This document shows positions 24,164 through 60,539 of a stretch of DNA of 62,128 bases, piece after piece. The DNA comes from an uncultured Candidatus Saccharibacteria bacterium (lineage in GTDB: Bacteria > Patescibacteriota > UBA1384 > XYA2-FULL-43-10 > 1-14-0-10-43-13): NCBI GenBank assembly GCA_964529405.1, contig CAZGWE010000005.1, positions 1-62,128 on the forward strand. Direction: 5' to 3'. Position numbers and translations under genes: made by a program. The notes under the pieces were generated by a model, which made no database searches, was not told where the DNA came from, and was given only the letters and a program-made list of their open reading frames with translations. Every line of letters begins with the position of its first letter. Within the stretch, counting starts at the first letter, position 1.

Positions 24164-24259
24164 TTGGTGCGCTAACTAGGTGTGATGTCTCTATATCCCC
24201 CAACCCAAACAACCAATATTGGCATCAAATCATCCATCATAACCGATTAAAAAACCATT

Positions 24260-24299
24260 TTTCGTCGTACAGAACGCGGCCGCGTTCTGTACGACGAAA
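24260..24299. repeat. 40-nt perfect palindrome with GCGGCCGC centre (copy 1)
   Basis: tttcgtcgtacagaacgcggccgcgttctgtacgacgaaa. Identical to 25059-25098. Confidence 0.95.
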
Positions 24300-24317
24300 T
24301 TCAACACAGCTGGTCGT

Positions 24318-24971
24318 TCATGTCCTAATTGATTCGCACCTGTTCCGATGTAATTTACGCCCATGGATCGCCCTGGGCTCTCTTTTAATTGTATCATTTT
24401 TCGATCGATCAAATTTTTTCTCAATAATACCATCGATATCAGACTTTTCGGCCACAATATAGACCACATATCCCTCAATTCCGAATGTATACGCTGCCAT
24501 CTCAACAAATTTACCAATATTTCGATTCGTAACCCAAAGACTGCCCTGTATTTTTTGGCAACCAAGATCCTTTAGCGCCTGTCTAAACTGATCTCTTTTT
24601 ACCTTGTCCTTCTCTGGTATATCAAAGGAGATATACCGATTCGTGCCATCTGCCTCAATCTTATCCGACAGTGTTTCAAGAGTTCTAAGTTTCGCTTTAT
24701 CCGTAAACCGAATCGAGGTTTGCTTTCCCACCCCTTCAAACTCAAGATAACCGCTCCGTTTCAAATTATAAAGTTGCTTGGCGGCTTTAATATCAGACCA
24801 GCCCGTCCCAAGCGAAAAATGGTCATTAAGGGAACGATAGACGTCCTTCCTGGTCAGAACAATTTCATCCGCAGCTTCAGCAAAAGCGGCAAGAAAATTC
24901 AACACCGCAAGCCCAGTATTACGCGCTCCTTTCTTTATATCCCTAAGTAACACCTGACGCCTATATCTCAC
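24318..24971 (-). CDS. PaaX-like / Cas2-fold-containing putative regulator
   Basis: C-terminal RYISFDIPEKDKVKRDQFRQALKDLGCQKIQGSLWVT resembles the PaaX C-domain (ferredoxin/Cas2-like) pattern. GTG 24971 follows GAAGGAGGGG. Confidence 0.4.
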   Translation of the reverse strand: MRYRRQVLLRDIKKGARNTGLAVLNFLAAFAEAADEIVLTRKDVYRSLNDHFSLGTGWSDIKAAKQLYNLKRSGYLEFEGVGKQTSIRFTDKAKLRTLETLSDKIEADGTNRYISFDIPEKDKVKRDQFRQALKDLGCQKIQGSLWVTNRNIGKFVEMAAYTFGIEGYVVYIVAEKSDIDGIIEKKFDRSKNDTIKREPRAIHGRKLHRNRCESIRT

Positions 24972-25058
24972 TGCCCCTCCTTCATTATTAACAATCACAT
25001 CTTTCTAGTAATGATTCCAGCCATTATCTACAACTCTCACCCCCCATTTTACCCCATA

Positions 25059-25098
25059 TTTCGTCGTACAGAACGCGGCCGCGTTCTGTACGACGAAA
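25059..25098. repeat. 40-nt perfect palindrome with GCGGCCGC centre (copy 2)
   Basis: Identical to 24260-24299. The local palindrome extends to 25057-25100. Confidence 0.95.
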
Positions 25099-25139
25099 TA
25101 GCTATCATACAATACGGAATGTAAAAATAGTAATATTAT

Positions 25140-25517
25140 TTACCAGACGGCGTTTTTGAGGTGGTCAATTTGGAGGTTGCCGTGATAGTCGAACTGGACA
25201 CCGACGACGTCGATGCGGATGGTTTTGCCGGGGTATTGCTGTTCGAGAGCGCGAGCAAGAAGTTTGAGCTTGTTCTGTTTTTTGAATCTGACCAGTTCCT
25301 GGGCCGAGCCGAAACCGGTTCCGCGAACCGATTTAACTTCGACGATCACAATATTAGCGCCATCTTGGGCCAAAATATCAATCTCCCCGCAAACCAACCT
25401 CAAATTTCGCTCGATGATCTTATATCCGATTCCCGTCAAAAACGCCGCCGCCTGATCCTCGCCTGCATTACCCGTTTTTTTATTTTGAGTTTTATCAAAC
25501 GTCATTTGCTTAATCAT
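25140..25517 (-). CDS. yraN: YraN-family endonuclease (UPF0102)
   Basis: GEDQAAAFLTGIGYKIIERNLRLVCGEIDILAQDGANIVIVEVKS. Confidence 0.8.
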   Translation of the reverse strand: MIKQMTFDKTQNKKTGNAGEDQAAAFLTGIGYKIIERNLRLVCGEIDILAQDGANIVIVEVKSVRGTGFGSAQELVRFKKQNKLKLLARALEQQYPGKTIRIDVVGVQFDYHGNLQIDHLKNAVW

Positions 25518-25597
25518 AATCCTTTTTTCCACCAACAACCAATCACAATAGTAAATATTTAAGCTATAATGCAATTAATTAATAGTTTGGAGGAAAA

Positions 25598-25858
25598 ATG
25601 TCAGCCGTCGAAATTGGTTATCAACCAGCATCACCGGAAACATCACCAGCATCAGAACCGAACGATGAACGCAGAATAAGGACCAAACAGCTGCGACACG
25701 AGCTAGACACAATTGATAGCTGCTTGGATCTCGGAATGGGTCCAAATGGCAATGAAGGCAGGCACCCGCTAACCAAAGATAAATCATATGAGGAACTTTT
25801 GAAGATGTATCAAGATCGAAAGACGGAACTTACCCATTTGCAAAATCCAGAGAGTTAA
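25598..25858 (+). CDS. Hypothetical small protein
   Basis: 86 aa, good SD (ggaggaaaaATG). No family recognised. Confidence 0.4.
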   Translation: MSAVEIGYQPASPETSPASEPNDERRIRTKQLRHELDTIDSCLDLGMGPNGNEGRHPLTKDKSYEELLKMYQDRKTELTHLQNPES

Positions 25859-25945
25859 CCCACCAATAGTCGGCTCCACGATCTAGAACTCGATTCCTAA
25901 TTACTCCCACACTCTCTAGCTATCACCCTCTAACACTTAAAATAG

Positions 25946-25984
25946 TTGTCATCCCAGACTGCGGTGCTGAGATCTGGGATCCAC
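25946..25984. repeat. Hairpin element (TTGTCATCC...GGGATCCAC family)
   Basis: ttgtcatcccagactgcggtgctgagatctgggatccac. Near-identical design at 51233-51271. Confidence 0.75.
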
Positions 25985-25988
25985 TCAA

Positions 25989-26762
25989 CTATTCCACCTC
26001 CAGCCCCCTAGACTGTACCCAAACCGACTCAAAAAACACTTGCATCGTTTGATAAAAACTAGTACTCGTAATAATCATTGCGTAAGGCTTCTCTTTTGTT
26101 TGAGAAAAAATAGCCACTTTATCATCATAGATGTGAATATGGCTCTCGGGTACGAACCACTCCGGAGCAATCCTAATCTGCCTGTTATCATCAGTCTCAG
26201 GCTTATATCGCCTGTAACCTGTTTTTTTATACTCTTCATTATCAGTCGCCAATCTTAAAGACCTATATACAATCTGGTGTTTTTTCGTTTCATCTAAATA
26301 GTTCGCAATAAATTCGTCACCCACGTGGCTGTGTCCAGATGCTCGAACGGGTATGGCATCAACTTTTTTACCAGTTGATTCCAGGGAGAGACGAAAAACT
26401 TCTTTGATACCCTCAACGCCCTCGAACATCTCCACCGCCGGCTTACCCTCCTCCTGTTTGTAAAGCGAGAAGAGGGCAGGAACGGCGTGTTCGATCGTAG
26501 CCAGCCTTGCCCGCATTATCTCTTGGAGTCGCGCCGGCGAAGCGGCAATGTAGTATTGATGCCTGTTTCGCTCAGTAATACTAATTAAACCAAGTCGGCG
26601 AAAATCATCCAGATAATTGTAAACAGTAGTCCTCTTAATACCGGCCCGCTGTGCAATCGGAATAATACTAGATTCCCCCAACTCCAACATAGCCAGATAT
26701 ACTTTGGCTTCTTTTTCGGTTAATCCGGCTTCTTTTAAAGATGTAAGTAAAGTGTTGTCCAT
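25989..26762 (-). CDS. TrmB-family transcriptional regulator (paralogue 1)
   Basis: LKEAGLTEKEAKVYLAMLELGESSIIPIAQRAGIKRTTVYNYLDDFRRLGLI wHTH. C-terminal domain ends ...FFESVW. Confidence 0.8.
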   Translation of the reverse strand: MDNTLLTSLKEAGLTEKEAKVYLAMLELGESSIIPIAQRAGIKRTTVYNYLDDFRRLGLISITERNRHQYYIAASPARLQEIMRARLATIEHAVPALFSLYKQEEGKPAVEMFEGVEGIKEVFRLSLESTGKKVDAIPVRASGHSHVGDEFIANYLDETKKHQIVYRSLRLATDNEEYKKTGYRRYKPETDDNRQIRIAPEWFVPESHIHIYDDKVAIFSQTKEKPYAMIITSTSFYQTMQVFFESVWVQSRGLEVE

Positions 26763-26848
26763 GTGTTTGTTTTGTCTATATTTCTAGACACATTCTAGCA
26801 CTTACTGATCATTTAGTCAAGACTTTAGCCATTTTTATGTCTAAACTA

Positions 26849-26877
26849 TTGACATATTACCGCTTACATGCTATAAT
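26849..26877 (+). promoter_or_regulatory. Conserved consensus promoter, copy A
   Basis: TTGACA-17 nt-TATAAT with extended -10 (TGCTATAAT), followed by GGCAAGTCACGATGAG. Confidence 0.75.
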
Positions 26878-26900
26878 GGCAAGTCACGATGAGAATTTGA

Positions 26901-26948
26901 TTGTCATCCTCGGGCAGCACGCCAGCAGGCGGCATGACCCGGGGATCC
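26901..26948. repeat. Hairpin element inserted in the cargo-A leader
   Basis: ttgtcatcctcgggcagcacgccagcaggcggcatgacccggggatcc. It sits between the TCAC and GTGA halves of the leader stem. Confidence 0.7.
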
Positions 26949-27119
26949 AGTTACTCTCAAAGTGAAGCAAGTGGCAACGGTCCTTCTCCTGGATCAGCCG
27001 GCAGCAAGCTGGCCCTGGGGGGAGAAGCTAGATGAGGTAGAGAGATTCACGCCATCAAAAACGCCAACCGAGGGCATAAGGCACAGGTTGGAATCACGAT
27101 CAGAAAGAGAAACAGAAAA

Positions 27120-27404
27120 ATGGACAAGATCAAGCTAGTTGCTGCAATGAAAAAAATCGGAGGCTACAAAGCCATCCTAATCGACAAAGACGGGGCCAAA
27201 ACCCAGGTGATGATGGGTAGATGGAGCAATCGTCTTAGTGTCGATGGGCACATTATCAAAGATCTGCCCGAGTTTGACACCGTCCGGCTTTTTGACGGGT
27301 GGTATGACTGCCACACAGCAGAATGGACAGCGGAGGAAGTAGAACAACATTGGGATGGGCTACCGAAATACCTGCGTGAAAACGCAAAGGTGAATGGCTG
27401 GTAG
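27120..27404 (+). CDS. Hypothetical small W-rich protein (cargo A1)
   Basis: 94 aa, G+C-rich, downstream of promoter A and its leader. Confidence 0.5.
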   Translation: MDKIKLVAAMKKIGGYKAILIDKDGAKTQVMMGRWSNRLSVDGHIIKDLPEFDTVRLFDGWYDCHTAEWTAEEVEQHWDGLPKYLRENAKVNGW

Positions 27405-27537
27405 CAGCTCTTCCATCCTCCTCCCCGCCTAGTACCCACCAACTTACGCCCCTCAGACAGTGATCATTACCTTAACAGGTAATGATCTCCTCCGAGGGAA
27501 TCATTCCCTTGCACACAGACACGAAAGGAAAACAAAA

Positions 27538-27801
27538 ATGACCGCAACCATACTGATCCGCGCTATGAAAATGTTCGGTGCCAGGTATTGCCATCTGGTG
27601 GAAATTGATGGAAAAACAAGGGAAGAGTATGGGTTGGACTGGACAGGAGCGCTAGTAAGCCTACTTGGAAAAGGCACGCTTAGCGAGGGAGACGAGATCC
27701 CTCGGTATCCAATTGTAAAATTGTTCGGAGTGTCATTCCCTTATGGGGAGATCTGGCTATATGAGCAAGTAGAGGCACGAGCTCTAGAATCTTCCATGTA
27801 A
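27538..27801 (+). CDS. Hypothetical small protein (cargo A2, possible paralogue of A1)
   Basis: ATG 27538 after gaaaggaaaac. AMKMFGARYCHLVEIDGKT resembles AMKKIGGYKAILIDKDGAKT of A1. Confidence 0.45.
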   Translation: MTATILIRAMKMFGARYCHLVEIDGKTREEYGLDWTGALVSLLGKGTLSEGDEIPRYPIVKLFGVSFPYGEIWLYEQVEARALESSM

Positions 27802-27816
27802 GGAGATATGAACCGA

Positions 27817-27848
27817 AAGAGCCAATCCATAAGGAAAGGCTCTTTTTT
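27817..27848 (+). terminator. Rho-independent terminator of cargo A
   Basis: AAGAGCCaatccataaggaaaGGCTCTTtttt. Near-identical hairpin at 32263-32296. Confidence 0.75.
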
Positions 27849-27865
27849 AATTCCGATTCCATTCT

Positions 27866-28063
27866 TCAATCCTTCAAAAACACCATCGTGAGGATCCGCA
27901 GAAACTCTAGCTTCTCCTCCATCACTCTCAATCTGATTTTGCGCTGTTCAATTTTAGCCAACAAAAATTCATTGCCCTGAGATCTGATCTCCAGCCAGAC
28001 AATCCATCTCCTTAAGTCCTCCAGCTCGGCTTTTAGCTCAAAATAGCCGTCCATAATCACCAA
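27866..28063 (-). CDS. Hypothetical coiled-coil protein
   Basis: 65 aa, 6 nt downstream of 28069-28440. RKIRLRVMEEKLEFL resembles the C-terminus of its neighbour. Confidence 0.35.
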   Translation of the reverse strand: MVIMDGYFELKAELEDLRRWIVWLEIRSQGNEFLLAKIEQRKIRLRVMEEKLEFLRILTMVFLKD

Positions 28064-28068
28064 TAGTA

Positions 28069-28440
28069 TTAGTGCACCAATTTCAACTTCTCCTCCAGAA
28101 CCCTGACACGTTTCTTGAGCTTCTCGAGTTCAAACGCAATAGTATCGTCGTCCTTAATAGTCCGCTTCTCAAGACGGGCGATACCTGCTTTGATCTCGTT
28201 TATCTCCGACCTTATTAACAAAAAACCACCACTTATTCCTGTGATTTGGTTTTCGAGCCTTCGCTGGCCTTGCTCAAGATTTCCAGCCCTATCTTCAAGC
28301 CGTTCTTGGCCTTGCTCAAGCCGTTCTTGGCCTTGCTCAAGCCGTTCTTGGCCTTGTTTTAGTTCATCAAACTGGCCTTGAAATACATCAAATTGCTTCT
28401 GGATTGATATGGCCAAACTTTCAATCGTTACTTTTACCAT
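28069..28440 (-). CDS. Coiled-coil protein with QGQERLE tandem repeats
   Basis: 123 aa, SD agaaggaac. Three in-frame 21-bp repeats. Confidence 0.5.
   Translation of the reverse strand: MVKVTIESLAISIQKQFDVFQGQFDELKQGQERLEQGQERLEQGQERLEDRAGNLEQGQRRLENQITGISGGFLLIRSEINEIKAGIARLEKRTIKDDDTIAFELEKLKKRVRVLEEKLKLVH
28300..28356. repeat. 21-bp tandem repeat (x2.7), coding
   Basis: ccgttcttggccttgctcaag repeated. Encodes QGQERLE units. Confidence 0.9.
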
Positions 28441-28584
28441 TTTAGTTCCTTCTTGTTCTATGTTTCCATTCTATCACCGACCATATCGGCGCTGTCAATG
28501 GTCAATTTTAATTACTTGCGCGCTCTCCGACTCTCGCCCTCCTTGTCCCGCGAAGCCTTGGCAAAGCGGGATCACTCTCTCACA

Positions 28585-29349
28585 CTATCTTATCTCCTTC
28601 GGCTTCTTGGCAATCTCCCAAAGCAAATTAAACCTCTGCCGTTCGTCATATGCCAAGGCCGAACTTTCGATTACTGTGGCAAATGGATTACTTTCCGAGT
28701 GGGCGATATTGGCAATCGAATCGCCAAAGATAAAAGTGATTGTCCTGGGATCAAATTCCGGTCCTGGCACCAATCTTGTCTCCCGCAATTCGGGATCATC
28801 ATTTGATGCCAGTTCGCGATTAGGTTTATTATTTTCAAAAATAGCCCGGGCAAAAATTTTCTTCTTAGCCCGTTCGGCGATGAAAATTTTAAAATATTCC
28901 GAATAAGCAGTCTCGATCATATTTGTGCCAATAATCAATAATTCGCTGCCCTCCGGCTGATTCAGAACTAAGTTAAAGACCTGTTCTACGCCATGAGCAC
29001 CTTCATAAAGGCGTATTTTAGGTTTCTGGGCAGATTTACTACTTAAGGCGTCAAACTGAGCCAAACTTTGGCTAAACTGTTTTTTGCGCTGGTCAAAAGC
29101 CGCCAACAATTCTCGGGGATTTACAACCGAGTAGATCGTCCGCTTATTATCATTGGTTTTACTGGCATATCCCATTGACAATAAATCGTCGAGCACAACG
29201 TAACAGGTTGGCCGCTTTACGCCGCATTTTTGAGCAATGTCCCAAATAGAACTCGGCCCCAACTCCAAACAAGCCAAATAAACCTTGGCCTCATTTTCGC
29301 CCAAGCCGATCATGTTTAACGTTTGAATTAAATCTGTGTTTTGAGTCAT
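28585..29349 (-). CDS. TrmB-family transcriptional regulator (paralogue 2)
   Basis: LNMIGLGENEAKVYLACLELGPSSIWDIAQKCGVKRPTCYVVLDDLLSMGY. Confidence 0.8.
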   Translation of the reverse strand: MTQNTDLIQTLNMIGLGENEAKVYLACLELGPSSIWDIAQKCGVKRPTCYVVLDDLLSMGYASKTNDNKRTIYSVVNPRELLAAFDQRKKQFSQSLAQFDALSSKSAQKPKIRLYEGAHGVEQVFNLVLNQPEGSELLIIGTNMIETAYSEYFKIFIAERAKKKIFARAIFENNKPNRELASNDDPELRETRLVPGPEFDPRTITFIFGDSIANIAHSESNPFATVIESSALAYDERQRFNLLWEIAKKPKEIR

Positions 29350-29786
29350 CTGGTCCTCCCCTTGAAGCAGGGGAAGTTAGTGGGGGTATGGCCCCTCCCC
29401 CTAGTGTAAGGGGAGCTGGAGGGGGTATTCTCCCCCAACTCATTCGCGATTTTTTCCACTACCCCCTCTAAATTTTCGGTCACTTCTTTGTTTGTAAATC
29501 TAAGAACTATTATGTCCAGTCCACTCAACACTGTATCCCTTTCCCGGTCTTTTATTCTGCCACTCTCGGAATAATGCGAATCCCCATCGATCTCTATAGC
29601 CAAACGCTTGTTTGGGCAATAAAAATCAACAATAAAACTGTCAATGCTATACTGGCGACGAAACTTATATCCATTTAATTGACAATTCCTGATCTTCTGC
29701 CAAAGCTTTCTCTCCGGTTCCGTCATGTTGCCGCGTAGTATCTTGCGTTTTTCCTTTAGAATTTCCTTGTTGTAAGTTTGATCCAT
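29346..29786 (-). CDS. DUF559 (Vsr/MutH-like endonuclease fold) protein
   Basis: RGNMTEPERKLWQKIRNCQLNGYKFRRQYSIDSFIVDFYCPNKRLAIEIDGDSHY. The C-terminal 30 aa are translated from a hairpin repeat. Confidence 0.75.
   Translation of the reverse strand: MDQTYNKEILKEKRKILRGNMTEPERKLWQKIRNCQLNGYKFRRQYSIDSFIVDFYCPNKRLAIEIDGDSHYSESGRIKDRERDTVLSGLDIIVLRFTNKEVTENLEGVVEKIANELGENTPSSSPYTRGRGHTPTNFPCFKGRTR
29352..29386. repeat. Hairpin repeat flanking the DUF559 gene (left)
   Basis: ggtcctccccttgaagcaggggaagttagtggggg. Its reverse complement matches 29881-29914 with 2 mismatches in the core. Confidence 0.75.
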
Positions 29787-29880
29787 TTTGTCCTCGATGA
29801 GCCTACCCTCTACTGGTTCTCCTCCTAAGGTAGGAGGAGTCAGAGAAGGTATTTTATTTATTTCTACAATGCTCTCCTAC

Positions 29881-29914
29881 CTCCTCTAACTCCCCCTGCT
29901 TCAGGGGGAGGACC
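29881..29914. repeat. Hairpin repeat flanking the DUF559 gene (right)
   Basis: ctcctctaactccccctgcttcagggggaggacc. Confidence 0.75.
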
Positions 29915-30039
29915 TGTAGTCATATTTATTGACACTAATATATCACACTACTTGTCTGATTGTCAATAGTATGGTTATCTTACGATTGATATTAATACTA
30001 TTATATATGAACTGATAAATATTATTACTGTCATATCTA

Positions 30040-30068
30040 TTGACAAAAGACTTATCATATGCTATAAT
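30040..30068 (+). promoter_or_regulatory. Conserved consensus promoter, copy B
   Basis: TTGACA-17 nt-TATAAT (TGCTATAAT), followed by GGCCTGTTCACGATGAG. Confidence 0.75.
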
Positions 30069-30161
30069 GGCCTGTTCACGATGAGGAAGCGGTCACCCGC
30101 CAATCACCGTGAAAGCAAATAGCAATCACGCCATCAACAACGCTGGACGAAAGGCAAGAAG

Positions 30162-30617
30162 ATGAACTTCAATAACAAAACGATGGGGATTTTGGTTGTT
30201 GATTTGTCCTGCTGGTGCGACGAGATCGGATTCATACAATGCCGGATTGATGAAATAGCCAATCGTGTAAGAGAATTCAGAGCCGTCTACGGCCACAATA
30301 TCGATGACGAAGGGAACGATGAGTGGACACTCGTTTCAGTTAAGTGGTTCCCTCGCTGGTGTGATAACCTTCGCCCACTAGTTTTCTACATCAACAAGAC
30401 CAAGACTGGTGACCCAAGAGATTATTACAGGATCCACAAAGAAAACGGCGAGATTATCTGGGAAACAAGCCCTGGTGACCTGGCCGGTCCACGTTCTGAA
30501 TTTTATTTTGTTGAGTGGGCCGTCAAAGTCCACGAGTCCCGAATTGAGGAAGAGATCTTAGAAGTCTCGCTCGAGGAACTGAAAGACTGGGTGATACTCA
30601 GTCTGGGTGGTGTTTAA
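30162..30617 (+). CDS. Hypothetical W/C-rich protein (cargo B1)
   Basis: 151 aa, G+C-rich, downstream of promoter B. Confidence 0.5.
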   Translation: MNFNNKTMGILVVDLSCWCDEIGFIQCRIDEIANRVREFRAVYGHNIDDEGNDEWTLVSVKWFPRWCDNLRPLVFYINKTKTGDPRDYYRIHKENGEIIWETSPGDLAGPRSEFYFVEWAVKVHESRIEEEILEVSLEELKDWVILSLGGV

Positions 30618-30700
30618 TACAACTCCGGCCATCCTCGCGGATGGCCCCCTTTCCCTGCTGTTCGACCATGAACAGCAGAGAGTGAACGAGAGGAAGAAAG

Positions 30701-31054
30701 ATGCGATACATGACATGGAAGATATGCATGGTCAGGATCGTAAAGCCGAATCCCAAGAACGCTCCCCTGGCCATCGCGGTTCGATCGGCCATCCTACGAT
30801 ACGACGAAAACGAGTGCAAAGCATCGTTCGACAGCTTTGAGCTTACGCTGGACGACAACTCAGAATACGCCAATTGGTGTAACGAATGGCGCATGAAGTT
30901 GTCCGGCAAGCTCGATCTCGGAGCCGACGCGTCAAACGAATACGGCAGGTTCGTTTCGCTGACCGACGAGGCGGGCAAGATCGAGGTAGAATGCTTCTAC
31001 CACGAACCGCCGCGTTTCTTCAAGAAAGACGGCACCGACATCACCCCCGTCTAA
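30701..31054 (+). CDS. Hypothetical protein (cargo B2)
   Basis: 117 aa, SD gagaggaagaaagATG. Confidence 0.5.
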   Translation: MRYMTWKICMVRIVKPNPKNAPLAIAVRSAILRYDENECKASFDSFELTLDDNSEYANWCNEWRMKLSGKLDLGADASNEYGRFVSLTDEAGKIEVECFYHEPPRFFKKDGTDITPV

Positions 31055-31077
31055 CCCCGAGGAGCCGAAGCTAAACG

Positions 31078-31108
31078 GACACCAGTCCTAGTAAGCCGAG
31101 GCTCTTTT
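31078..31108. repeat. 31-nt direct repeat (left) bracketing the GHKL cassette
   Basis: gacaccagtcctagtaagccgaggctctttt. 30/31 identical to 32362-32392. Confidence 0.9.
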
Positions 31109-31121
31109 TCTATTCATCTTG

Positions 31122-31197
31122 TTGACAAGATTGTTGACAAGATTTTATTTCTACTTGACAAGATTGTTGACAAGATATATAATTTACATGACAAGAT
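31122..31197 (+). promoter_or_regulatory. Iterated TTGACAAGAT operator-like array overlapping a consensus promoter
   Basis: Five copies, at 31122, 31134, 31155, 31167 and 31188 (ATGACAAGAT). TTGACA 31155 -17 nt- TATAAT 31178. Confidence 0.7.
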
Positions 31198-31211
31198 TAA
31201 CGAAAGAGTAT

Positions 31212-32243
31212 ATGAATTTAGAAGAGAAAATAATCGAAATTGCCAGCAAGAAAAAGAAATTTAAAACCTCCGACATAGTCAAAGGACTGGGGGGTTCATT
31301 TTCGCGACAGTATATTAGCACAATAATTAATAATATGGCCAAAAAAGGGTTGCTGCTTCGTACCGGCAAAACAACTGGCACGTTCTATGCCCTGCCCGAG
31401 TACTCCGACTTTCTTCTCAACGGACACATAATGAAGAAATTTAAAAACGATGGGCTTAAGGAGCATGAAGTACTGCAAGAGATAGAGAGCCGGGCCACTT
31501 ATATCACAAAGCTAAAAGACAATGTTAGAAGTATTTTTACGTATGCTTTTTCTGAAATGCTTAATAATGCAATTGAGCACTCTAAGTCACCAGAAGCTCA
31601 AATTGAAGTTAGCCAAAACAAAGAAAGTTTTTCATTCATTGTTAAAGATACCGGCATTGGAGTATTTAAAAACATTATGCAAAAACGACACTTGAGTTCC
31701 GAGCTGGAAGCAATTCAGGACTTGCTTAAAGGCAAAACAACAACCGCTCCACATGCCCACTCCGGCGAAGGAATTTTTTTCACATCCAAAGCGGCTGATA
31801 TTTTCGTGTTGGAAAGTTTTGGCCACAGGCTAAGAATCGACAATATTATTAACGACATATTCGTTGAAGAACTTAAACCAAAAATGAAAGGTACCAAGGT
31901 TTTATTTTATATTAATCTCAATTCAAAAAGACACTTGAGCGATATATTCAAAGCTTATCAAACCGACCCAGAAGAGTACGCTTTTGATAAGACTGAGGTT
32001 AAAATAAGACTCTATACCATGGGCACCGTCTATATCTCCCGTTCGCAAGCCAGACGTGTGCTCTCTGGACTCGAAAAATTCAAGCATATAGTTATGGATT
32101 TCGACAAAGTCCCAACAGTCGGCCAAGCCTTCGCCGATGAGGTTTTCCGCGTCTTCAAAATCAAACACCCGGAAATCGTGATAGAACCAGTAAATATGAA
32201 TGAAACAACAGCTTTCATGGTTGGCAGAGTTGAGAAAGTTTAA
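31212..32243 (+). CDS. wHTH + GHKL ATPase (RsbW-like) + DUF4325 (STAS-like) fusion protein
   Basis: N-box SEMLNNAIEHS, G1 KDTGIGV, G2 SGEGIFF. C-terminal SRSQARRVLSGLEKFKHIVMDFDKVPTVGQAFADEVF resembles DUF4325. ATG 31212 follows gaaagag; the track start at 31119 translates the operator array. Confidence 0.7.
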   Translation: MNLEEKIIEIASKKKKFKTSDIVKGLGGSFSRQYISTIINNMAKKGLLLRTGKTTGTFYALPEYSDFLLNGHIMKKFKNDGLKEHEVLQEIESRATYITKLKDNVRSIFTYAFSEMLNNAIEHSKSPEAQIEVSQNKESFSFIVKDTGIGVFKNIMQKRHLSSELEAIQDLLKGKTTTAPHAHSGEGIFFTSKAADIFVLESFGHRLRIDNIINDIFVEELKPKMKGTKVLFYINLNSKRHLSDIFKAYQTDPEEYAFDKTEVKIRLYTMGTVYISRSQARRVLSGLEKFKHIVMDFDKVPTVGQAFADEVFRVFKIKHPEIVIEPVNMNETTAFMVGRVEKV

Positions 32244-32262
32244 AACCACAACGTTGTACACT

Positions 32263-32296
32263 AAAAGAGCCAATCCGAAAGAAAAGGCTCTTTTTT
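32263..32296 (+). terminator. Rho-independent terminator of the GHKL fusion gene
   Basis: AAAGAGCCaatccgaaagaaaaGGCTCTTTtttc. Confidence 0.75.
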
Positions 32297-32313
32297 CATT
32301 CACAATAATATTT

Positions 32314-32357
32314 AAATTCCAGATATAGTACGCGATCGCTGTGTATATCTGGAATTT
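32314..32357. repeat. Palindromic element with GCGATCGC core
   Basis: aaattccagatata-gtacgcgatcgctgtg-tatatctggaattt. Related to 41320-41359. Confidence 0.8.
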
Positions 32358-32361
32358 GACA

Positions 32362-32392
32362 GACACCAGTCCCAGTAAGCCGAGGCTCTTTT
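32362..32392. repeat. 31-nt direct repeat (right) bracketing the GHKL cassette
   Basis: gacaccagtcccagtaagccgaggctctttt. Confidence 0.9.
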
Positions 32393-32564
32393 CTTTTTGT
32401 GATTTTATTGTGCAAATCTAATAATTTCCCACTATTGACAATCTGGGACTTTGGAAGTAAGATCAGCTTACTAAATCGCCCTGTGAGGTTGTCGAGAGAT
32501 AACGTTTGCGGGGCCTTTTGTTTTCCAAATATTTCCAAATTTTATGTGATATAATGTTGCTATA

Positions 32565-32720
32565 ATGACTAAAGCGAGACAAAAAGAGCTGGAAAAAGCT
32601 CGTCAGAACGCGGTTAAAAATCCCCCAAGAGAGCTACGTAGCTTGATAATAAACACTTCGCGGTGCAAGAATAAGAAAAATACGCATCAGATACTGATGG
32701 AGATGCGATACGGTAAATAA
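32565..32720 (+). CDS. Putative small basic protein upstream of the PIN gene (candidate antitoxin)
   Basis: Not in the track (51 aa): MTKARQKELEKARQNAVKNPP...MRYGK. It ends 14 nt before the PIN start. Tandem extended -10 boxes lie immediately upstream. Confidence 0.35.
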   Translation: MTKARQKELEKARQNAVKNPPRELRSLIINTSRCKNKKNTHQILMEMRYGK

Positions 32721-32734
32721 CTGAGGGGATTTAA

Positions 32735-33136
32735 ATGAGACACTGCGTCTTACAAGATAGCAGTTTCTTAATAGCCACTCTAAACAATGATGACCTGTTT
32801 CATGCGGATGCTCTTTTTGTGTTCAAAAAGTTAATGGAATACAAAAGCAAGATCAAAATTATCATTCCCGCTCTTGTATTCTATGAGACCATCGTGACGC
32901 TTATCAAAAAAGGATCGCCCAGGGCTACCATTGAGAAAAAACTTTGGGACTTTCTTTATCATGACTCAGTTATAAACGTATCCTTGATTGAAACAGCGGC
33001 CTTTAAGGCTTGCCGAAGACTGTCTAACTGCCCCCTTGAAGACCTAAGGACACAGGATTTCATCATTGCAAATATTGGTATTGAATATGATGCTCAAATT
33101 CTGACCTTCGATAATAAAGATGAAAGAAAAAGTTAA
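32735..33136 (+). CDS. PIN-domain protein (VapC-like toxin)
   Basis: VLQDSSFLIATL, YETIVTL, TQDFIIANI, ILTFD acidic-residue pattern. SD gagggg. Confidence 0.7.
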   Translation: MRHCVLQDSSFLIATLNNDDLFHADALFVFKKLMEYKSKIKIIIPALVFYETIVTLIKKGSPRATIEKKLWDFLYHDSVINVSLIETAAFKACRRLSNCPLEDLRTQDFIIANIGIEYDAQILTFDNKDERKS

Positions 33137-33344
33137 ACAGGTATATCCATCAATTTACTATTGCTCCTCTAAAGACAACATGTCCGACGATACCGAATAT
33201 TTTCTGAAAGATTTCTATGAAGCAATCGACATAACAGATATTGATTTAAATGCAATTCCTTTCTGATAACAAAAAATGCCCTTGTCTTGCGACTTGGGCA
33301 TTTCTTCTAACATTTATTGTTCGAAGGCAATCGAGAACTATTTT

Positions 33345-33388
33345 GTGGATCCCCGGGTTCAGATCGGAGTCTGCCCCGAGGATGACAG
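33345..33388. repeat. Hairpin element (reverse orientation of the GTCATCC family)
   Basis: gtggatccccgggttcagatcggagtctgccccgaggatgacag. Confidence 0.65.
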
Positions 33389-33449
33389 AGGAGGGGTGGG
33401 CAAGATTCGTCGTTCGTTGTTAGTATTGTTCGTCGTCCATTTGTGATGA

Positions 33450-33947
33450 CTACTTCTTTATTCTGTCTCCGGCCATGGCAGCTGTTTTTTTATCAATTTC
33501 TTCCTCCTCGGCTTTTCTCTTAGCTTCTTCCTTGGCAGCCAATTCAGCCTTCTCGGCAGCAATTTTAGCTAGTTCCTCTTCTGCATCTTTTTCTTCCCAG
33601 ACTTTGACATCACGATTAAGCTCTTTCAGGCGGGCATGCTTGCCTGAAAGTTCGCGCATAAAGTAAAGTTTAGCGCGTCTAACTTTTGATTGTTTGATTC
33701 TTTCAACCTTCACGATTCTTGGAGAGTGGATCGGGAAAACACGCTCAACACCGACGCCGAACGACTCTTTTCGTACAGTGAAAGTGCCATCAAGACCTGT
33801 ACCGTGCTTGCAAGCAATGACTAACCCTTCAAAAACCTGGATACGTTCCTTGCCGGCTTCCTTAACTAAAAGGTGGACACGAACGGTGTCGCCAGGCTTC
33901 ACGGCTGGAGCATTTTTCTTTAAATATTTTGTAAGTATCTTTTCCAT
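33450..33947 (-). CDS. rplS: 50S ribosomal protein L19 with K/E-rich C-terminal extension
   Basis: [33 protein letters not shown]...[29 protein letters not shown]. Confidence 0.92.
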
Positions 33948-36053: not shown

Positions 36054-39000
36054 ATGCCAAAAAACGAAGAATCACAACCCGAAAGTAAGTTCGTCCACCT
36101 CCACGTTCACTCGCACTACTCCATGCTTGATGGCATGGGAAAGCTTCCTGATCTCATCAAAAAGGCTAAGGCTGATGGCAGTATCGCGCTAGCTTTGACC
36201 GATCATGGAGTTATGCATGGGGCGATCGAGTTTTATGAGGAGTGTGGGAAGGCCGGCATTAAACCGATTATTGGCATTGAAGCCTACGTCGCACCGCGCA
36301 CGCTCAAGGACAAAACGCCCAGAATCGATGCCAGCCCATACCACCTGGTTCTCTTGGCAAAAAACGAAGAAGGTTACAAAAACTTACTCAAACTTACCTC
36401 CATCGCCCATCTTGAAGGCTATTATTATAAACCCAGAATCGACAAAGCCACACTCAGGAAGCATGCCAAAGGCTTGATCGGCCTCTCCGCCTGTCTCCAG
36501 GGCGAAATCCCCCGCAAAGCCATGGAAGATATAGAAAAGGGCCGCCAAACCCTGCGCGAATATTTAGAGATCTTTGAGCCCGGCGATTTTTACCTCGAGG
36601 TCCAAAAGCACCCCTCTATCAGAGAGCAGGATCCGACTAACGAGGTCGTTTTTCAATTGGCCAAAGAGTTCAACCTCAAGGTCGTCGCCACTTGCGACAC
36701 CCACTATGTCAACTCAGATGATGCCATTGCCCAGGATGCCCTTCTCTGCCTTCAAACCGGCAAAATCCTTTCCGATACCAATCGCATGCGTATGACAGGT
36801 GACGATTACTCGCTCCAGTCGCCCGATCAAATGGCCGCCAATTTTCCCGGCCATCCGGAAGTTCTCTCCAACACTCTCGAAGTGGCCGAAAAGTGCAATC
36901 TCCACTTGGATCTCGGCGGCATTATTATCCCGAATTTTCCGGTGCCGAAAGGCTACACCCTGGAAAATTACTTTCTGGAAAAAGCTTATCTCGGCATCAA
37001 TTGGCGTTATGGAACAGAAAAGATTAAAAAAGAGGATCTTCCCGATCTCCCCAATGACCCAACCGACACCGATTTCCCCAATTTATCCGAAACTTTAAAA
37101 ATCCCCGGAGAAATCTGGGAACGGGCTAAATACGAACTCTCCGTCATTCTGCGTATGGATTATGCCGGTTACTTCTTGATTGTGGCTGACTATGTCCAAT
37201 GGGCCAAAGACCACGGTATTGCCGTTGGTCCCGGCCGCGGCTCGGCTGCCGGTTCGATTGTGGCTTACGGCTTTAATATCACTAACCTCGACCCTCTTAA
37301 ATATGATCTTCTTTTTGAACGTTTTTTGAATCCCGACCGTATCTCTATGCCTGATGTTGATATGGACTTTGCCGATTCCCGTCGGGCTGAGGTGATTGAA
37401 TATGTCTGCAGCAAATATGGCCGCGACCACGTGGCTCAAATTATCACATTCGGTACAATGGCTGCCCGCATGGCCGTACGCGATGTCGGCCGGGTCCTAG
37501 GCATGAGTTACGCCGAAGTTGACTTGATCGCCAAGCTGATTCCCTCCGGTCCCGGCGGTATGTCGCTATCAAAAGCGCTGGCCAATATTGCCGAACTTAA
37601 ACAACTCTATGATTCCAACTCCCAAGTCAAGCAGTGTATAGATATTGCCGGCAAACTCGAGGGTGTCGTCCGCCACGCCTCCGTGCACGCCGCCGGCGTG
37701 GTTATATCAAAAGATACCTTGACCGAATATGTACCGCTTCAGGAGGCTGCCAAGGGTGATATTTCGGTTGTGACTGAATACTCCATGGGCCCAATCGAGC
37801 ATCTTGGCCTGCTCAAGATGGACTTTCTCGGCCTCTCCAACCTCACCATTATTCAAAATGCCCTACGCATTATCAGAAAAACAAAGGGGGTCGATCTCGA
37901 CATCGACAATTTGCCGCTCGACGACAAACCCTCCTACGAACTGCTGGCTCGCGGTGATACTATCGGCATCTTCCAGCTGGAATCGGACGGCATGAAACGC
38001 TATCTCAAAGAGCTTAAGCCCAATGTTTTTGAGGATATTGTTGCTATGGTCGCCCTCTACCGCCCGGGTCCGATGCAGTGGATCGATTCGTTTATTGCCA
38101 GAAAGCATGGCCGCGAAGCAATCAATTATCCTCATCCCAAAGCTAAAGCCGCTCTGGAAAATACCTACGGTATTATTGTCTATCAGGAGCAGGTTATGCA
38201 GATGTCCAAAGATATGGCCGGCTTCACCGGCGGCCAAGCTGACGGCCTGCGCAAAGCTATGGGCAAGAAAATCAAAGAGTTGATGGAGAAGATGGGCAAA
38301 CAGTTCGTCGAAGGTTGTATCGCCAACAATGTTGATAAACAGATTGCCCAGGATTTATATAAAGCCATGCAGGATTTCGCCCAATATGCTTTCAATAAAT
38401 CCCATGCTGCCTGTTACGCTATGATCTCCTACCAGACGGCCTATCTTAAATCACACTATCCCTCTGAATTTATGGCCGCGCTGTTGACCTCGAATCAGGA
38501 CGATCTTGACAAGATGGCTATGGAGATACAGGAGTGCGATCGTATTGGCATCAAGGTTCTACCGCCATCGGTCAATGAATCATTCGTTGATTTTGGCGTG
38601 GTCAAAGAGACCGGTAATATCCGTTTTGGACTCTCGGCCATTAAGAATGTCGGTTTAGCCGTAGCTGAGGCGATTGTTAAAGAGCGCAAAAATGGCATTT
38701 ACAAGGACCTTAAGGACTTTATTACGCGTCTGGATGGCAAAGTAATTAATAAAAAATCACTCGAGTCCCTGGCTATGGCCGGGGGAGTTGATGACCTGGG
38801 CGAGCGTGCCGAACTGCTTTACAACATGGAGCGGATCCTGGCTTTTGCCAATACCTTCCAGAAAAACAAGTCGGCCGGACAGTCCTCTCTTTTTGGCGAG
38901 ACTCAAATTGAGCTGGGCAATATTGAAATGGAAAAAACCAGGGAAGCCGACCGCAAACAACGCCTGGCCTGGGAGAGAGAACTTTTGGGTATGTACGTCT

Positions 39001-39782: not shown

Positions 39783-39903
39783 AATAATCTGTCATTTCGA
39801 CACCATTCGAGTCTGCTCGAAGGCGAGAAATCTACAAATTAATGAGCCAGAGTAAGCGGTAGATTTCTCGTCCCGATCGGAATCGGGATGTCAAAATGAC
39901 ATA
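39783..39903. repeat. Complete GTCATTTCGAC...GAAATCT hairpin element
   Basis: tgtcatttcgacaccattcgagtc...cgagaaatctac pairs with gtagatttctcgtcc...gtcaaaatgaca. The first 66 nt are identical to 42231-42296. Confidence 0.85.
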
Positions 39904-41238: not shown

Positions 41239-41319
41239 AATGTTATTTAAAAGTGATCAAAAATGATTACTTTTAATATACATTAACTAACACTCGTTGT
41301 CAAGTCAAAACAGCAATAT

Positions 41320-41359
41320 ATTCCAGAAATAGCAAGCGATCGCTTGCTATTTCTGGAAT
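41320..41359. repeat. 40-nt perfect palindrome with GCGATCGC centre
   Basis: attccagaaatagcaagcgatcgcttgctatttctggaat. Confidence 0.95.
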
Positions 41360-41440
41360 TTGAACGCAAAAAAACATCCCAAAACAAAAGAAAAAACCGC
41401 CGTGCCGAGGTGGCCGTGCGGTATAGGAATTGGAAAGCGT

Positions 41441-42230: not shown

Positions 42231-42408
42231 AATAATCTGTCATTTCGACACCATTCGAGTCTGCTCGAAGGCGAGAAATCTACAAATTAATGAGCCCAAT
42301 TAAGTTGAATGAGATCCTCACGTCAGCTGATAAGAATCGGCTTCCTCAGGATGACATCAGAATGTCAGATTTCTCGCCTCCACCAGAGTGGATGGTGTCG
42401 AAATAACA
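42231..42408. repeat. Composite nested hairpin element
   Basis: Left half is identical to 39783-39848. A GATCCTCAC...CTCAGGATGACAT element (42311-42358) is inserted. The right half is gtcagatttctcgcc...ggtgtcgaaataaca. Confidence 0.8.
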
Positions 42409-58042: not shown

Positions 58043-59023
58043 TCAGTCCTGAAGAATGTTGATGATTAATTTGATGATATTATCTTTTTCTTTGGGGTTA
58101 CTGCTGGCTACCAGCAACGCCAGCGCGATGATGGAGTTGTCATTCAGTTTGAGCTCGCCGTTGGCGCGATAGAGAAATTCATTGCGATTCAAAAAGTGCA
58201 GAAAGAGCATCGAACCGATGCGTTTGTTACCATCGGCAAAAGGGTGGTCTTTGATCGTCAAATAGAGCAAATTGGCCGCTTTTTCCTCGACACTGGGATA
58301 GAGATCTTGGCCGTCAAAAGTTTGGTTAATACAACCAAGTACGCTTTTTAATTTAAAACCGACCTCACAGCCAAACAAATCGCCGGCGATACCGAATTTC
58401 GATAGCTCCTGCCGCATCTCCTCAACTAACTTTTTTGATCGAGTGTATTCAAATTCATACTGAATTTGATGATTTAGCTTGGCAATCTCCAAACTATTAG
58501 CATCAAACTCATCGAGTACTCTCCAAGACTTGGCGTATTCAGTAATAATTTGCAGTAACTCTTTCTCTTTGCCTATCAACTCCTCCACGTTAGATTTCTC
58601 GCCGATCATCAGAATCGTACTCTTGATCTCCTCCAGGCGTTTGTTTTGCTCTCGTAGCAATTTTTCATTGATAGCGTAACCTTTAAGCAAGTAGCTTTTT
58701 AGAGTTTTAGTTGCCCAGATTCTGAACTGCGTCGCTTTTTGGGAGTTGACCCTGTAACCAACTGAGATAATCATATCCAAATTGAACACTTCTGTTATTC
58801 TTTTTACTTCCCGGGAACCCTCTTTTTGAACTGTTTCCATTTTGGAACAAGTTGCTTCAGAATTCAATTCTTTGGTACGTAGAATATTTTTGACGTGTTT
58901 CGAAACAGCCGGCACTTGCACATCAAAAAAGTCCTCAATCTGCTTTTGCGACAGCCATATTGACTCATCTTTGACGCGAGCTTCGATATAAACCTCGCCC
59001 TGGGGCGGAAGTATAAATAACAA
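58043..59023 (-). CDS. RhuM-like N-domain fused to a Fic/DOC domain
   Basis: [29 protein letters not shown] (RhuM-like). Fic motif [11 protein letters not shown]. Confidence 0.8.
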
Positions 59024-59208
59024 CTTGATTCTCTTCTATATTCCCCTCCTTGGTTATATTAAGGAAAGTATACCGAACATAGGCCAAACATGTCAAACAA
59101 ATTGTCAATTGCCGCTAGCGAATATTTAGCACCAACAGGAATCTAAAGCCAATCCCAGATGTCCACCAGCTGGCGGATCGAAAAACATCCTCCAGGTTTG
59201 GAAAGACA

Positions 59209-59499
59209 TTATTCGCTTTCTTGCATGTATTCGACAACAATATTAATGATTTTCTGAACATTTTCATTACAAGATTTAAAAAGCAAACGGTCCAACACAT
59301 CATCGCCATATTTTCGAATCAGATCACTGATTAGCGCATGAACAAACGACTGTGTAGCCGCATCAATGTTTTCAAAATCCAAAACTATTTCTTGTTTATC
59401 CTCTAAGGCTGGGACGATCTCCTTTGATCTGATCTCTTTGGCGATGTCTTTATTCTCGGCAAATACGCCAACCCTCTTGAACAACTTGATCACTTTCAT
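59209..59499 (-). CDS. DUF4325 (STAS-like) protein
   Basis: 96 aa. EIVLDFENIDAATQSFVHALISDL resembles the DUF4325 pattern. 4-nt overlap with the upstream ATPase. Confidence 0.65.
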   Translation of the reverse strand: MKVIKLFKRVGVFAENKDIAKEIRSKEIVPALEDKQEIVLDFENIDAATQSFVHALISDLIRKYGDDVLDRLLFKSCNENVQKIINIVVEYMQESE

Positions 59500-60449
59500 A
59501 TAAATCTCGCTTTCTTGTAGCCAGTCCCCTTCCTTTCCCTAACAGTTTTGATATAGACGTCTCGAATTAAATCCAAGAGGGCGGAGAATTCCTTAGTTTC
59601 GTCCAAAGAGATGTCAATCCCAACTACGGTCCCTTGCCAATACGGGAAATCGTCGTCTTTCGAGTGCCTATCACGGAACGGATCTGCATATAATCTATCC
59701 GAGGTGCCCTTGAGCAGCTTATACATAGCATTGCCACTGTAAATCATAAAGAAATTGCGTTTGACTTTGGCAATCGATTTAATGAAAAACAAACCCGCCC
59801 CGGCATTATATTCAGTACCCCCCTCCCTGCTTGTCGTGCCGGTGATGCCAGGCGTCAACGCTAATTGAATCGCCTCTATATCAGTATTAGCAACATGAGA
59901 ATGGTTAATTGTTTTTTTGATCCCCACGCCTCTATCAGCGATACCAATCCTGATCATATTACTTTTTTTATGATATTGGGCTGAGACAATTGAGCCTTGC
60001 CGAGAATCAGCGTGCTCAAGCACATTTCTGACCAACTCGCTCACAACATACCGAATAGAATCGACTTGGTGAGGGCTCAGATGTAACAAGGGAATCATCT
60101 CTGTAATAAAATCCGTCAGCTCTTCTGAATCTTTGATCGTCGTTAAGGGTATAAATCGCCCAGCAGATTCGTGCTCAGTTATTTTAATGCCAGAATCGAT
60201 ATTTAAAAATTTGAACAACCCCATCCGCTCCAGATAATGAGCAGATTTTGCCGTTGGCGTTTCAAATACTATTTTCTTGGGATCCAAAGAAAGTCCAATT
60301 GCTGCAACCATTGACAAAACAACCGGATGGACCGATATCCAGGATTGATTAGCTGTGACCTCCAACTTTTCCGGCTCTCGCGGATCGATTTCTCGCAGAA
60401 AAGGATCTATGTTGCCGATAAAAGCACTGTTAGGAATATGGACTTTCAT
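59496..60449 (-). CDS. GHKL-superfamily ATPase (RsbW/anti-sigma-kinase-like) with novel N-domain
   Basis: N-box SELVRNVLEHA, G1 ADRGVGI, G2 NAGAGLFF. No SD; the ATG lies 6 nt after the -10. Confidence 0.7.
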   Translation of the reverse strand: MKVHIPNSAFIGNIDPFLREIDPREPEKLEVTANQSWISVHPVVLSMVAAIGLSLDPKKIVFETPTAKSAHYLERMGLFKFLNIDSGIKITEHESAGRFIPLTTIKDSEELTDFITEMIPLLHLSPHQVDSIRYVVSELVRNVLEHADSRQGSIVSAQYHKKSNMIRIGIADRGVGIKKTINHSHVANTDIEAIQLALTPGITGTTSREGGTEYNAGAGLFFIKSIAKVKRNFFMIYSGNAMYKLLKGTSDRLYADPFRDRHSKDDDFPYWQGTVVGIDISLDETKEFSALLDLIRDVYIKTVRERKGTGYKKARFI

Positions 60450-60455
60450 GCCTAC

Positions 60456-60502: not shown

Positions 60503-60539
60503 TGTTCTATATGATCATTCGCAATCCCGGTAATAGCCA

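Follow-up and report, generated by a model that had tools for sequence, protein, structure and literature searches.

How a single gene comes to lie between two nearly perfect copies of a 31-nt sequence, together with its own promoter, repeated operator-like words and terminator, and what its product might do there, are the questions raised by positions 31078 to 32392 of the 62,128-nt stretch of DNA considered here (the window), which forms contig C5 of a genome, designated G000, of 936 kb and 98% completeness. The gene encodes a 343-aa protein that combines a winged helix-turn-helix (wHTH), a GHKL ATPase domain and a DUF4325 (“STAS-like”) domain, and the AT-rich segment 31109-32361 (1.3 kb) is a self-contained accessory transcription unit made up of an operator-laden promoter, this one gene and a terminator. 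Taken as a whole, the locus is best explained, with rather better than even confidence, as an autorepressed kinase-switch unit that recombined into the terminator of a neighboring operon, cargo-B, within the gap between rplS and yraN. The repeats, array, promoter, gene, terminator and palindrome described in an initial annotation of this DNA were all recovered where that annotation had placed them, as follows.

31059-31108, plus strand: terminator hairpin of cargo-B, with the 5' arm GAGGAGCC (31059-31066) outside the repeat and the loop and 3' arm inside it
31078-31108, plus strand: copy 1 of the direct repeat (31-mer), 34 nt long when extended to 31075
31122-31197, plus strand: array of five direct repeats (four of TTGACAAGAT, one of ATGACAAGAT), the presumed operator for the encoded wHTH
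31155-31183, plus strand: sigma-70-type promoter, TTGACA-17-TATAAT
31212-32243, plus strand: gene for the 343-aa protein, with the wHTH at 31218-31388, GHKL at ~31506-31913 and DUF4325 at 32046-32210
32263-32298, plus strand: intrinsic terminator of the gene, with its stem at 32263-32271 / 32286-32294 followed by a T run
32313-32359, no strand assigned: imperfect palindrome centered on GCGATCGC, with a sibling at 41317-41363
32362-32392, plus strand: copy 2 of the direct repeat, a partial terminator copy without the 5' arm of the hairpin

The array begins a short distance beyond copy 1 and is organized with some regularity. Exact copies of TTGACAAGAT start at 31122, 31134, 31155 and 31167 and ATGACAAGAT starts at 31188, giving start-to-start spacings of 12, 21, 12 and 21 nt and thus a set of phased direct repeats; the TTGACAAGAT word clusters nowhere else in the genome. 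The promoter embedded in the array agrees with the expected hexamers at 12 of 12 positions, with the -35 TTGACA lying inside repeat 3, repeat 4 falling in the 17-nt spacer, the -10 TATAAT at 31178-31183 and repeat 5 just downstream of it. Because sites 3 to 5 span the -35, the spacer and the transcription start, their occupancy should repress transcription. The operator word is found once more in the window, at 38503-38515, as the palindrome ATCTTGACAAGAT inside a 1227-aa open reading frame (ORF), probably by chance. In the public annotation the protein has 351 aa and starts at an ATG within operator repeat 5 (window 31188-31211); the homologue alignment favors the ATG at 31212, which gives 343 aa.

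Comparison across the family, here over 24 loci (that of G000 and 23 others, with codes of the form G0xx, G2xx and G3xx denoting the comparison genomes), indicates that the layout of the array is retained as its sequence changes. Orthologues from other genera, families and classes have a like array upstream, in which an 8-10-nt word occurs in doublets 11-12 nt apart, with 33 nt between doublets and a fifth site 21-22 nt beyond. The word itself differs among them (GTTTACAA, TTGTCATA, TAACATAG, GTTAACAT or TTACAATW), and the two most deviant operators are paired with deviant recognition helices (ARSY and SRPW vs SRQY). In a more distant clade a single site lies at the -35 and a second one, inverted, follows the -10; GTTTACA repeats also precede the genes of relatives on viral contigs. 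At least four copies of a 9-mer within 130 nt upstream were found at 15 of the 24 family loci as compared with 2 of 257 controls, these being other genes with non-coding upstream regions (p = 6e-17). The array is regarded as an operator rather than as the end of an element because none of the 24 loci has a copy of the site at its 3' end. The autoregulation proposed in the initial annotation is supported in that the phased array has been kept with the gene across Patescibacteria and viral contigs while its sequence has varied, and these comparisons lend strong support to the view that the protein very probably represses its own promoter via the array.

The domain architecture inferred earlier from the letters alone, wHTH followed by GHKL and DUF4325, is borne out by Pfam, with matches to a wHTH of the Penicillinase_R kind at residues 3-59 (21.5 bits, slightly below the cut-off), to HATPase_c at residues 110-234, to HATPase_c_2, and to DUF4325 at residues 279-333 (E = 5e-13). 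The N, G1 and G2 boxes of the GHKL domain do not vary among 48 aligned homologues (E115/N119, D146xGxG150 with G148 included, and G185xG187). Two stretches in the C-terminal part are mostly invariant, SRSQARR (276-282, with R282 in at least 90%) and VPTVGQAF (300-307, with P301, T302 and A306 in at least 90%); it is the wHTH that varies. An AlphaFold model with a predicted local distance difference test (pLDDT) score of 82 presents the DUF4325 region as strand-helix-strand-helix-strand-helix over residues 262-339. The best Foldseek matches of this model in the PDB are SpoIIAB (1TIL, 1TH8 and 1L0O), RsbW (6M36/6M37) and UsfX (8IH8), with MecI (1SD7) the best match for the wHTH head; by sequence, no PDB chain matched the protein at E <= 1, and a profile compared with the PDB returned weak histidine-kinase and BlaI matches only. 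The GHKL domain is thus predicted, from the model, to be of the SpoIIAB/RsbW type, the fold class of anti-sigma kinases, and the partner-switch likeness proposed at the outset holds at the level of the fold. For the fuller description of the protein as a partner-switch-like sensor, the architecture and the cis-regulation are supported by sequence comparison, and the chemistry is a prediction.

The family to which this protein belongs is very large. A homologue search returned at least 7981 proteins; among the matches listed, the full-length ones are 57-67% identical, those with named sources come from Saccharimonadia, Roizmanbacteria, Parcubacteria, CPR2, Levybacteria and Doudnabacteria, and the annotations read “DUF4325 domain-containing protein” or “anti-sigma regulatory factor.” DUF4325 is mentioned in three papers, none of which addresses function, and among the PADLOC defense models the fused protein matches DrmA only, at an unconvincing E = 0.007. 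The distribution of the gene is patchy, with full-length homologues in 4 of 60 relatives and in 22 of 400 genomes across the phylum, and presence in 2 of 22 genomes of the same family when a weak partial match is counted. Relatives with 31-47% identity are encoded on 35 IMG/VR viral contigs, some of them from isolate genomes, where the gene neighbors are uninformative; GenBank phages and PLSDB plasmids gave no match to the protein. The backbone of the protein tree is unresolved and cannot date the arrival of the gene in G000, and the tree contains well supported pairs that cross classes, one of Saccharimonadales with Roizmanbacteria (100/100) and one of Parcubacteria with Levybacteria (100/99).

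The direct repeats that bracket the unit are unusual in this genome. The two 31-mers, GACACCAGTCC(T/C)AGTAAGCCGAGGCTCTTTT, are identical at 30 of 31 positions, with 0 matches expected from shuffled sequences, and the pair extends to 34 nt at 94% identity (2 mismatches). A search of the entire 936-kb genome allowing 3 mismatches gave no further copy, each half of the 31-mer at up to 2 mismatches is confined to the same two places, and no copy was found in Joint Genome Institute (JGI) metagenome contigs. These counts, genome-wide and in the metagenome contigs, rule out a common terminator-associated repeat, which is one of two findings that the initial annotation had named as able to undo its reading. 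Neither copy coincides with a transfer RNA (tRNA), a transfer-messenger RNA (tmRNA) or an Rfam family, so that the end of a tRNA, tmRNA or other known RNA is ruled out as well.

Folding clarifies what the repeated sequence is. Copy 1, in its context, forms part of a branched hairpin (-19.9 kcal/mol, z = -2.6), to which it contributes the loop and 3' arm, and is taken to be part of the cargo-B terminator because the 5' arm of that hairpin (31059-31066) starts 5 nt past the stop codon (31052-31054) of the upstream 117-aa ORF, the last of cargo-B; the 31-mer, earlier described as the 3' end of the cargo-B operon, is indeed the 3' part of its terminator. Copy 2 lacks a corresponding 5' arm (-10.6 kcal/mol, z = +0.3) and so reproduces the terminator only in part. 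When the outer flanks are joined in silico, the hairpin is followed by UUUUCUUUUUGUGAUUUU and an ordinary intrinsic terminator results, so that the layout of the repeats is what insertion into the T tract of a terminator with a duplication of ~31-34 nt would leave. No terminal inverted repeats join the two ends of the bracketed segment, which encodes one protein and nothing else, and substitutions give no clue to the origin of the repeat in G000, which is non-coding and all but perfect. Cargo-B (30162-31054) is an orphan two-gene operon composed of ORF1 (151 aa) and a G+C-rich ORF2 (117 aa), neither of which has a homologue in the 60 relatives. ORF1 has no family match; ORF2 has no homologue in the JGI metagenome contigs or among 5.8 billion proteins and no match in Pfam, NCBIfam, PADLOC or PHROG, and by these searches it is a complete orphan. 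With cargo-B thus lacking counterparts, no empty site for the junction was found.

Flanking repeats are not peculiar to this copy of the gene. When the 400 nt before and the 250 nt after a gene are compared and scored by their best ungapped match, repeats reaching 14 or more occur at 9 of the 24 family loci and at 12 of 300 ORFs (4%; p = 2e-6) taken from around them within the same 20-kb stretches, a control that is approximate, the ORF calls being crude; for stand-alone genes only, the corresponding counts are 6 of 14 and 11 of 279 (p = 3e-5). In G000 itself 11 of 678 ORFs score at least 14, among which the cassette gene ranks third. The family repeats are all different in sequence, range from 20 to 105 nt, and begin 135-360 nt ahead of the ATG and 0-190 nt past the stop codon. 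In some relatives they involve gene or tRNA ends, as would be expected at an integrase-borne island: that of G024 is a gene 3' end (the last 16 codons and stop of the upstream gene), that of G039 a gene 5' end (the first 29 codons of yraN), and those of G224 and G366 abut tRNA 3' ends. The repeat of the window is a terminator fragment. The G039 and G024 copies differ chiefly at third codon positions (6/2/14 and 1/3/6), with the reading frame kept, and because this divergence is of the coding type the repeats are interpreted as donor and recipient versions of one gene end and not as duplications made in situ.

These observations point to a family spread by homology-anchored recombination, that is, by Campbell-type or homology-facilitated illegitimate joins between genomes sharing the flanking gene, rather than to a fixed-stagger transposase or a dedicated attachment site. 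As the family repeats are unrelated in sequence and vary from 20 to 105 nt, the 31-mer is not considered a dedicated recombination site. Other classes of mobile element were considered and rejected. A transposon, insertion sequence or miniature inverted-repeat transposable element is contradicted by the lack of terminal inverted repeats, of a transposase domain and of 3' operator copies, and by the varying repeat length; an integrase in cis by its absence from the cassette, the one tyrosine recombinase of G000 being on contig C10 and no serine recombinase being found in that genome; and an integron gene cassette by the perfect promoter of the unit itself, its single-unit structure and the lack of a nearby integrase, a judgment made without attC models.

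The genomic position of the unit is informative in its own right, as defined by the two housekeeping genes that border the variable gap.

33450-33947, minus strand: rplS, one border of the gap
25146-25499, minus strand: yraN (UPF0102), the other border, adjoining rplS in six relatives and lying 7.9 kb away in G000

In the six relatives (G001, G004, G028, G025, G035 and G042) the two genes are ~130 nt apart, and in other relatives 0.4-1.5 kb of other material lies between them. The gene under study sits between rplS and yraN in G037 and G039 and adjoins yraN in G011, where rplS is 11 kb off on the same contig. The 7.9 kb in G000 contain two TrmB/cargo modules, a DUF559 endonuclease, the cassette and a small-ORF/PIN pair; overall, the interval from 25146 to 33947 holds at least five unrelated accessory modules. 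From these comparisons the rplS-yraN gap is a recurrent accretion hot spot of this order of Patescibacteria, and apart from the two hot-spot genes no neighbor recurs among the 24 loci. The orthologue in G037 (G037:C9, ~1777-2828) is split into two ORFs corresponding to query residues 1-222 and 220-340, and this copy in the gap is probably frameshifted and decaying. In composition the bracketed segment, at 37.7% G+C, lies in the lowest 3% of windows of the genome (45.5 ± 4%), with cargo-B next door at 50.4%. The low G+C content, the patchy distribution, the hot spot and the enrichment of flanking repeats across the family lend indirect support to the original claim that the unit was acquired as a cassette: the likely route was ordinary recombination within a hot spot, with the 31-mer as a probable scar rather than a site.

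Some of the intergenic material around the unit recurs elsewhere in the window. The terminator hairpin of the gene (~32263-32294) has a folding energy of -10.6 kcal/mol (z = -3.4) and that of the GCGATCGC-centered palindrome is -22.1 kcal/mol (z = -5.9). The sibling of this palindrome, in another intergenic region, is 83% identical and a perfect 20+20 palindrome, and the two have in common the outer arms ATTCCAGA.ATAG and the tail AATTTGA. A terminator at 27816-27853, after the cargo-A operon, is 89% identical to that of the gene over 32264-32301 and represents a recycled intergenic module; promoter/leader copies are likewise shared in the region. Further away, a 74-nt direct repeat, 96% identical, is found at 39783-39856 and 42231-42304, 2.4 kb apart, and just past yraN a 226-aa ORF (24318-24998, minus strand), which has the top flanking-repeat score of the 678 ORFs of G000, is flanked by two 46-nt repeats with 98% identity (24255-25099), each a perfect palindrome centered on GCGGCCGC.

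In mechanistic terms, the favored explanation would run as follows. A BlaI/MecI-like winged helix would bind the five direct repeats, all on the same face of the helix from -68 to +8 of its own promoter, and so bring about repression. The attached GHKL/STAS module may then set DNA binding or oligomerization through ATP binding, hydrolysis or self-phosphorylation, presumably in response to some cue, which in the CapK/CapS system is single-stranded DNA (Chambers et al., EMBO J 2026, PMC13373217). As to its history, the unit most likely recombined into the terminator of the neighboring cargo-B operon, and the 31-34-nt repeats would be the scar of a Campbell-type or homology-facilitated join for which both sides provided a short stretch of terminator; they would not represent a dedicated attachment site.

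Several observations weigh against this explanation, with regard both to the chemistry and to the history of the unit. The canonical phospho-acceptor of STAS domains is a Ser/Thr at the N-terminus of helix 2, here position 302 in a register inferred from secondary structure and not from superposition; in 60 relatives this position is T in 19, E in 20, S in 5 and M, D, N, I or L in the rest. T302 was rejected as a conserved phospho-acceptor, since T is found only in a close clade. On these alignments the canonical acceptor is not conserved in the family, and because the residue at position 302 varies, the canonical kinase-substrate mechanism is not to be assumed. The invariant S276 and S278 of SRSQA[RK]R are alternative candidates for phosphorylation. 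As to history, the approximate control for the flanking repeats has been mentioned, the nearest homologue among the matches listed is only 67% identical, so that no recent donor is known, and the G000 protein groups in the tree, with moderate support (91/93), with this 67% homologue and with the protein of G011, which belongs to the same family and has its copy in the same interval. Because of this grouping the gene may instead be an old, vertically inherited resident of the rplS-yraN gap and the 31-nt repeat a later and unrelated local event of shuffling, duplication or gene conversion, arising among crowded terminator and promoter modules, for example on the arrival of cargo-B, and not from insertion of the gene. 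Such a history, which is unlikely overall and still the most substantial of the rivals, would suit a region so rich in recycled modules (the terminators 32264-32301/27816-27853, the palindromes 32313-32359/41317-41363 and the promoter/leader copies), and a 97%-identical non-coding repeat cannot match the age of a 59%-identical protein pair. It does not account well for repeats that bracket exactly promoter, gene and terminator, for a copy 2 that is a partial terminator whose joined flanks restore a clean one, for the difference in G+C content between the bracketed segment (37.7%) and its left neighbor (50.4%), or for like bracketing at other loci of the family.

The remaining rivals are all much less probable. 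The strict version of the initial annotation, in which a site-specific recombinase, acting in trans, exchanges cassettes at the 31-mer as a specific attachment site, draws on the length and near perfection of the repeat, on the integrase-like abutment of the G224 and G366 repeats on tRNA 3' ends and on the presence of one tyrosine recombinase, on contig C10, but is rendered very improbable by the absence of the 31-mer elsewhere in the genome and the metagenome contigs, by the different sequences and lengths (20-105 nt) of the repeats at other loci, and by the lack of any recombinase in or beside the cassette and of a serine recombinase in the genome. The array might also consist of iterons, or of binding sites at the end of an element, for a protein that replicates or moves its own cassette: it stands at the start of the cassette, no other mobility gene is present, and plasmid origins as well as Tn7- and Mu-type ends typically contain several direct repeats to which a protein of the element binds. 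This is the least probable of the explanations considered: the sites overlap with promoter elements, the -35 and the spacer, as well as with the transcription start, none of the 24 loci has a site copy at the 3' end, terminal inverted repeats are lacking, the ATPase belongs with the small anti-sigma kinases and not with the topoisomerase or MutL type, and the distant clade with inverted sites flanking the -10 is repressor-like. Finally, a PIN/VapC-like gene (32735-33136; Pfam E = 5e-8) lies 490 nt downstream, and as a GHKL kinase and a STAS protein can control the VapC nuclease in VapK-VapS-VapC (PMC13373217), the two genes could form a kinase-controlled toxin-antitoxin or defense unit of that type. 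The gene, however, has its own terminator, copy 2 of the repeat separates it from the PIN gene, the latter comes with a small upstream ORF and a promoter-like site of its own, and no PIN neighbor is found at the 23 other loci, so that little credence can be given to such a partnership.

The split GHKL and DUF4325 genes to which the fused gene had been compared lie near the end of the window.

59209-60449, minus strand: split pair without a wHTH, with GHKL at 59496-60449 and DUF4325 at 59209-59499

By Pfam the first of these is an HATPase_c_2 protein of 317 aa and the second a DUF4325 protein of 96 aa. The description of the fused protein as the single-chain version of this pair is overstated: the 317-aa protein aligns with the family over the GHKL domain alone (28% over 156 columns, probability 94%), the 96-aa protein aligns weakly with the fused protein, although both DUF4325 parts match the Pfam model, and the split kinase, which is preceded by a TrmB regulator, has no wHTH. 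By sequence, fused and split proteins are remote paralogues with a common module and not fusion and fission forms of one another. The split kinase also matches the N-terminus of the PADLOC DrmA model (E = 1.6e-18), and this model seems to carry a GHKL-DUF4325 module at its N-terminus. On the minus strand of 58043-61322 a TrmB regulator, the GHKL protein, the DUF4325 protein and a RhuM/Fic protein stand in a row, with matches to the DrmA (DISARM) model at its positions 31-252 for the GHKL protein and 319-390 for the DUF4325 protein.

The broader interest of the locus lies in the size of the family, which with at least 7981 homologues extends across classes of ultra-small bacteria and viral contigs and is without functional literature. 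With a whole kinase/STAS/repressor switch in one chain and its own operator array alongside, the unit offers a convenient object for the study of such switches, and it adds to the picture of accessory-gene exchange at fixed hot spots in genome-reduced bacteria that have almost no recombinases. On a more speculative view, held with little confidence, the protein would be a single-chain, DNA-tethered partner switch that senses a stress or invader cue (perhaps single-stranded DNA) and has spread as a minimal module in Patescibacteria and viruses, conferring a benefit such as immunity, exclusion or addiction with no separate effector gene; in a bolder form of this view, the protein might assist its own recombination into new sites.

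Among known genetic elements, phage “morons” resemble the unit in running from promoter to terminator with deviant G+C content between unrelated genes, and relatives of the protein occur on the 35 IMG/VR contigs. Scars of Campbell-type or homology-facilitated joins are similar in having short homologous flanking stretches, some with donor-type divergence; both comparisons differ from the present case in that no circular intermediate or donor has been observed for the cassette. For the array, PhoB provides a parallel, as it binds direct repeats ~11 bp apart on one helix face. Both the PhoB/OmpR boxes and BlaI/MecI involve winged-helix proteins at sites overlapping the -35, and BlaI/MecI are nearest to the wHTH of the 343-aa protein; PhoB/OmpR, however, have a receiver domain, which is missing here, and BlaI/MecI bind palindromes and are controlled by proteolysis.

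For the ATPase domain, the best structural matches are with the kinases of the SpoIIAB-SpoIIAA, RsbW-RsbV and UsfX-RsfB pairs (template modeling score ~0.7 on target), with which the protein shares the N, G1 and G2 boxes and a STAS-like partner domain. It differs from them in that the partner is fused in cis, a DNA-binding domain is added, no sigma-factor partner is in evidence and the phospho-acceptor position is not conserved. Fusion of a kinase with its STAS antagonist is also seen in Rv1364c of Mycobacterium tuberculosis, a single chain of PAS, PP2C, RsbW-like kinase and STAS domains. Rv1364c differs in having sensor and phosphatase domains, and is not known to contain a DNA-binding domain or to be controlled by an operator of its own.

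The closest characterized system is CapK/CapS, first shown in 2026 to control bacterial immunity (PMC13373217). There, single-stranded DNA activates a GHKL kinase, which phosphorylates a conserved serine of a STAS-wHTH repressor; the repressor dimer is thereby broken and the locus de-repressed (PMC13373217). CapK/CapS are two proteins, HTH-STAS-GHKL followed by STAS-wHTH, whereas here a single chain is ordered wHTH-GHKL-STAS-like; they lie upstream of, and control, an adjacent immune operon, whereas here the gene has its own terminator and no recurrent neighbor; and their operators are palindromic, in contrast to the direct repeats of the array. CapS and VapS have an absolutely conserved Ser/Thr for which the present family offers no conserved counterpart, and the 343-aa protein has no sequence match to PDB chains, the deposited CapS/VapS structures included. 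In both CapK/CapS and VapKSC, an anti-sigma-type GHKL kinase, a STAS domain and an HTH or wHTH make up a self-repressing switch, as is proposed for this protein. The repressor of CapK/CapS binds its own promoter region and oligomerizes along the DNA, and here a repeat array that co-varies with the protein overlaps the promoter. Like the unit described here, CapK/CapS is found in mobile or defense contexts.

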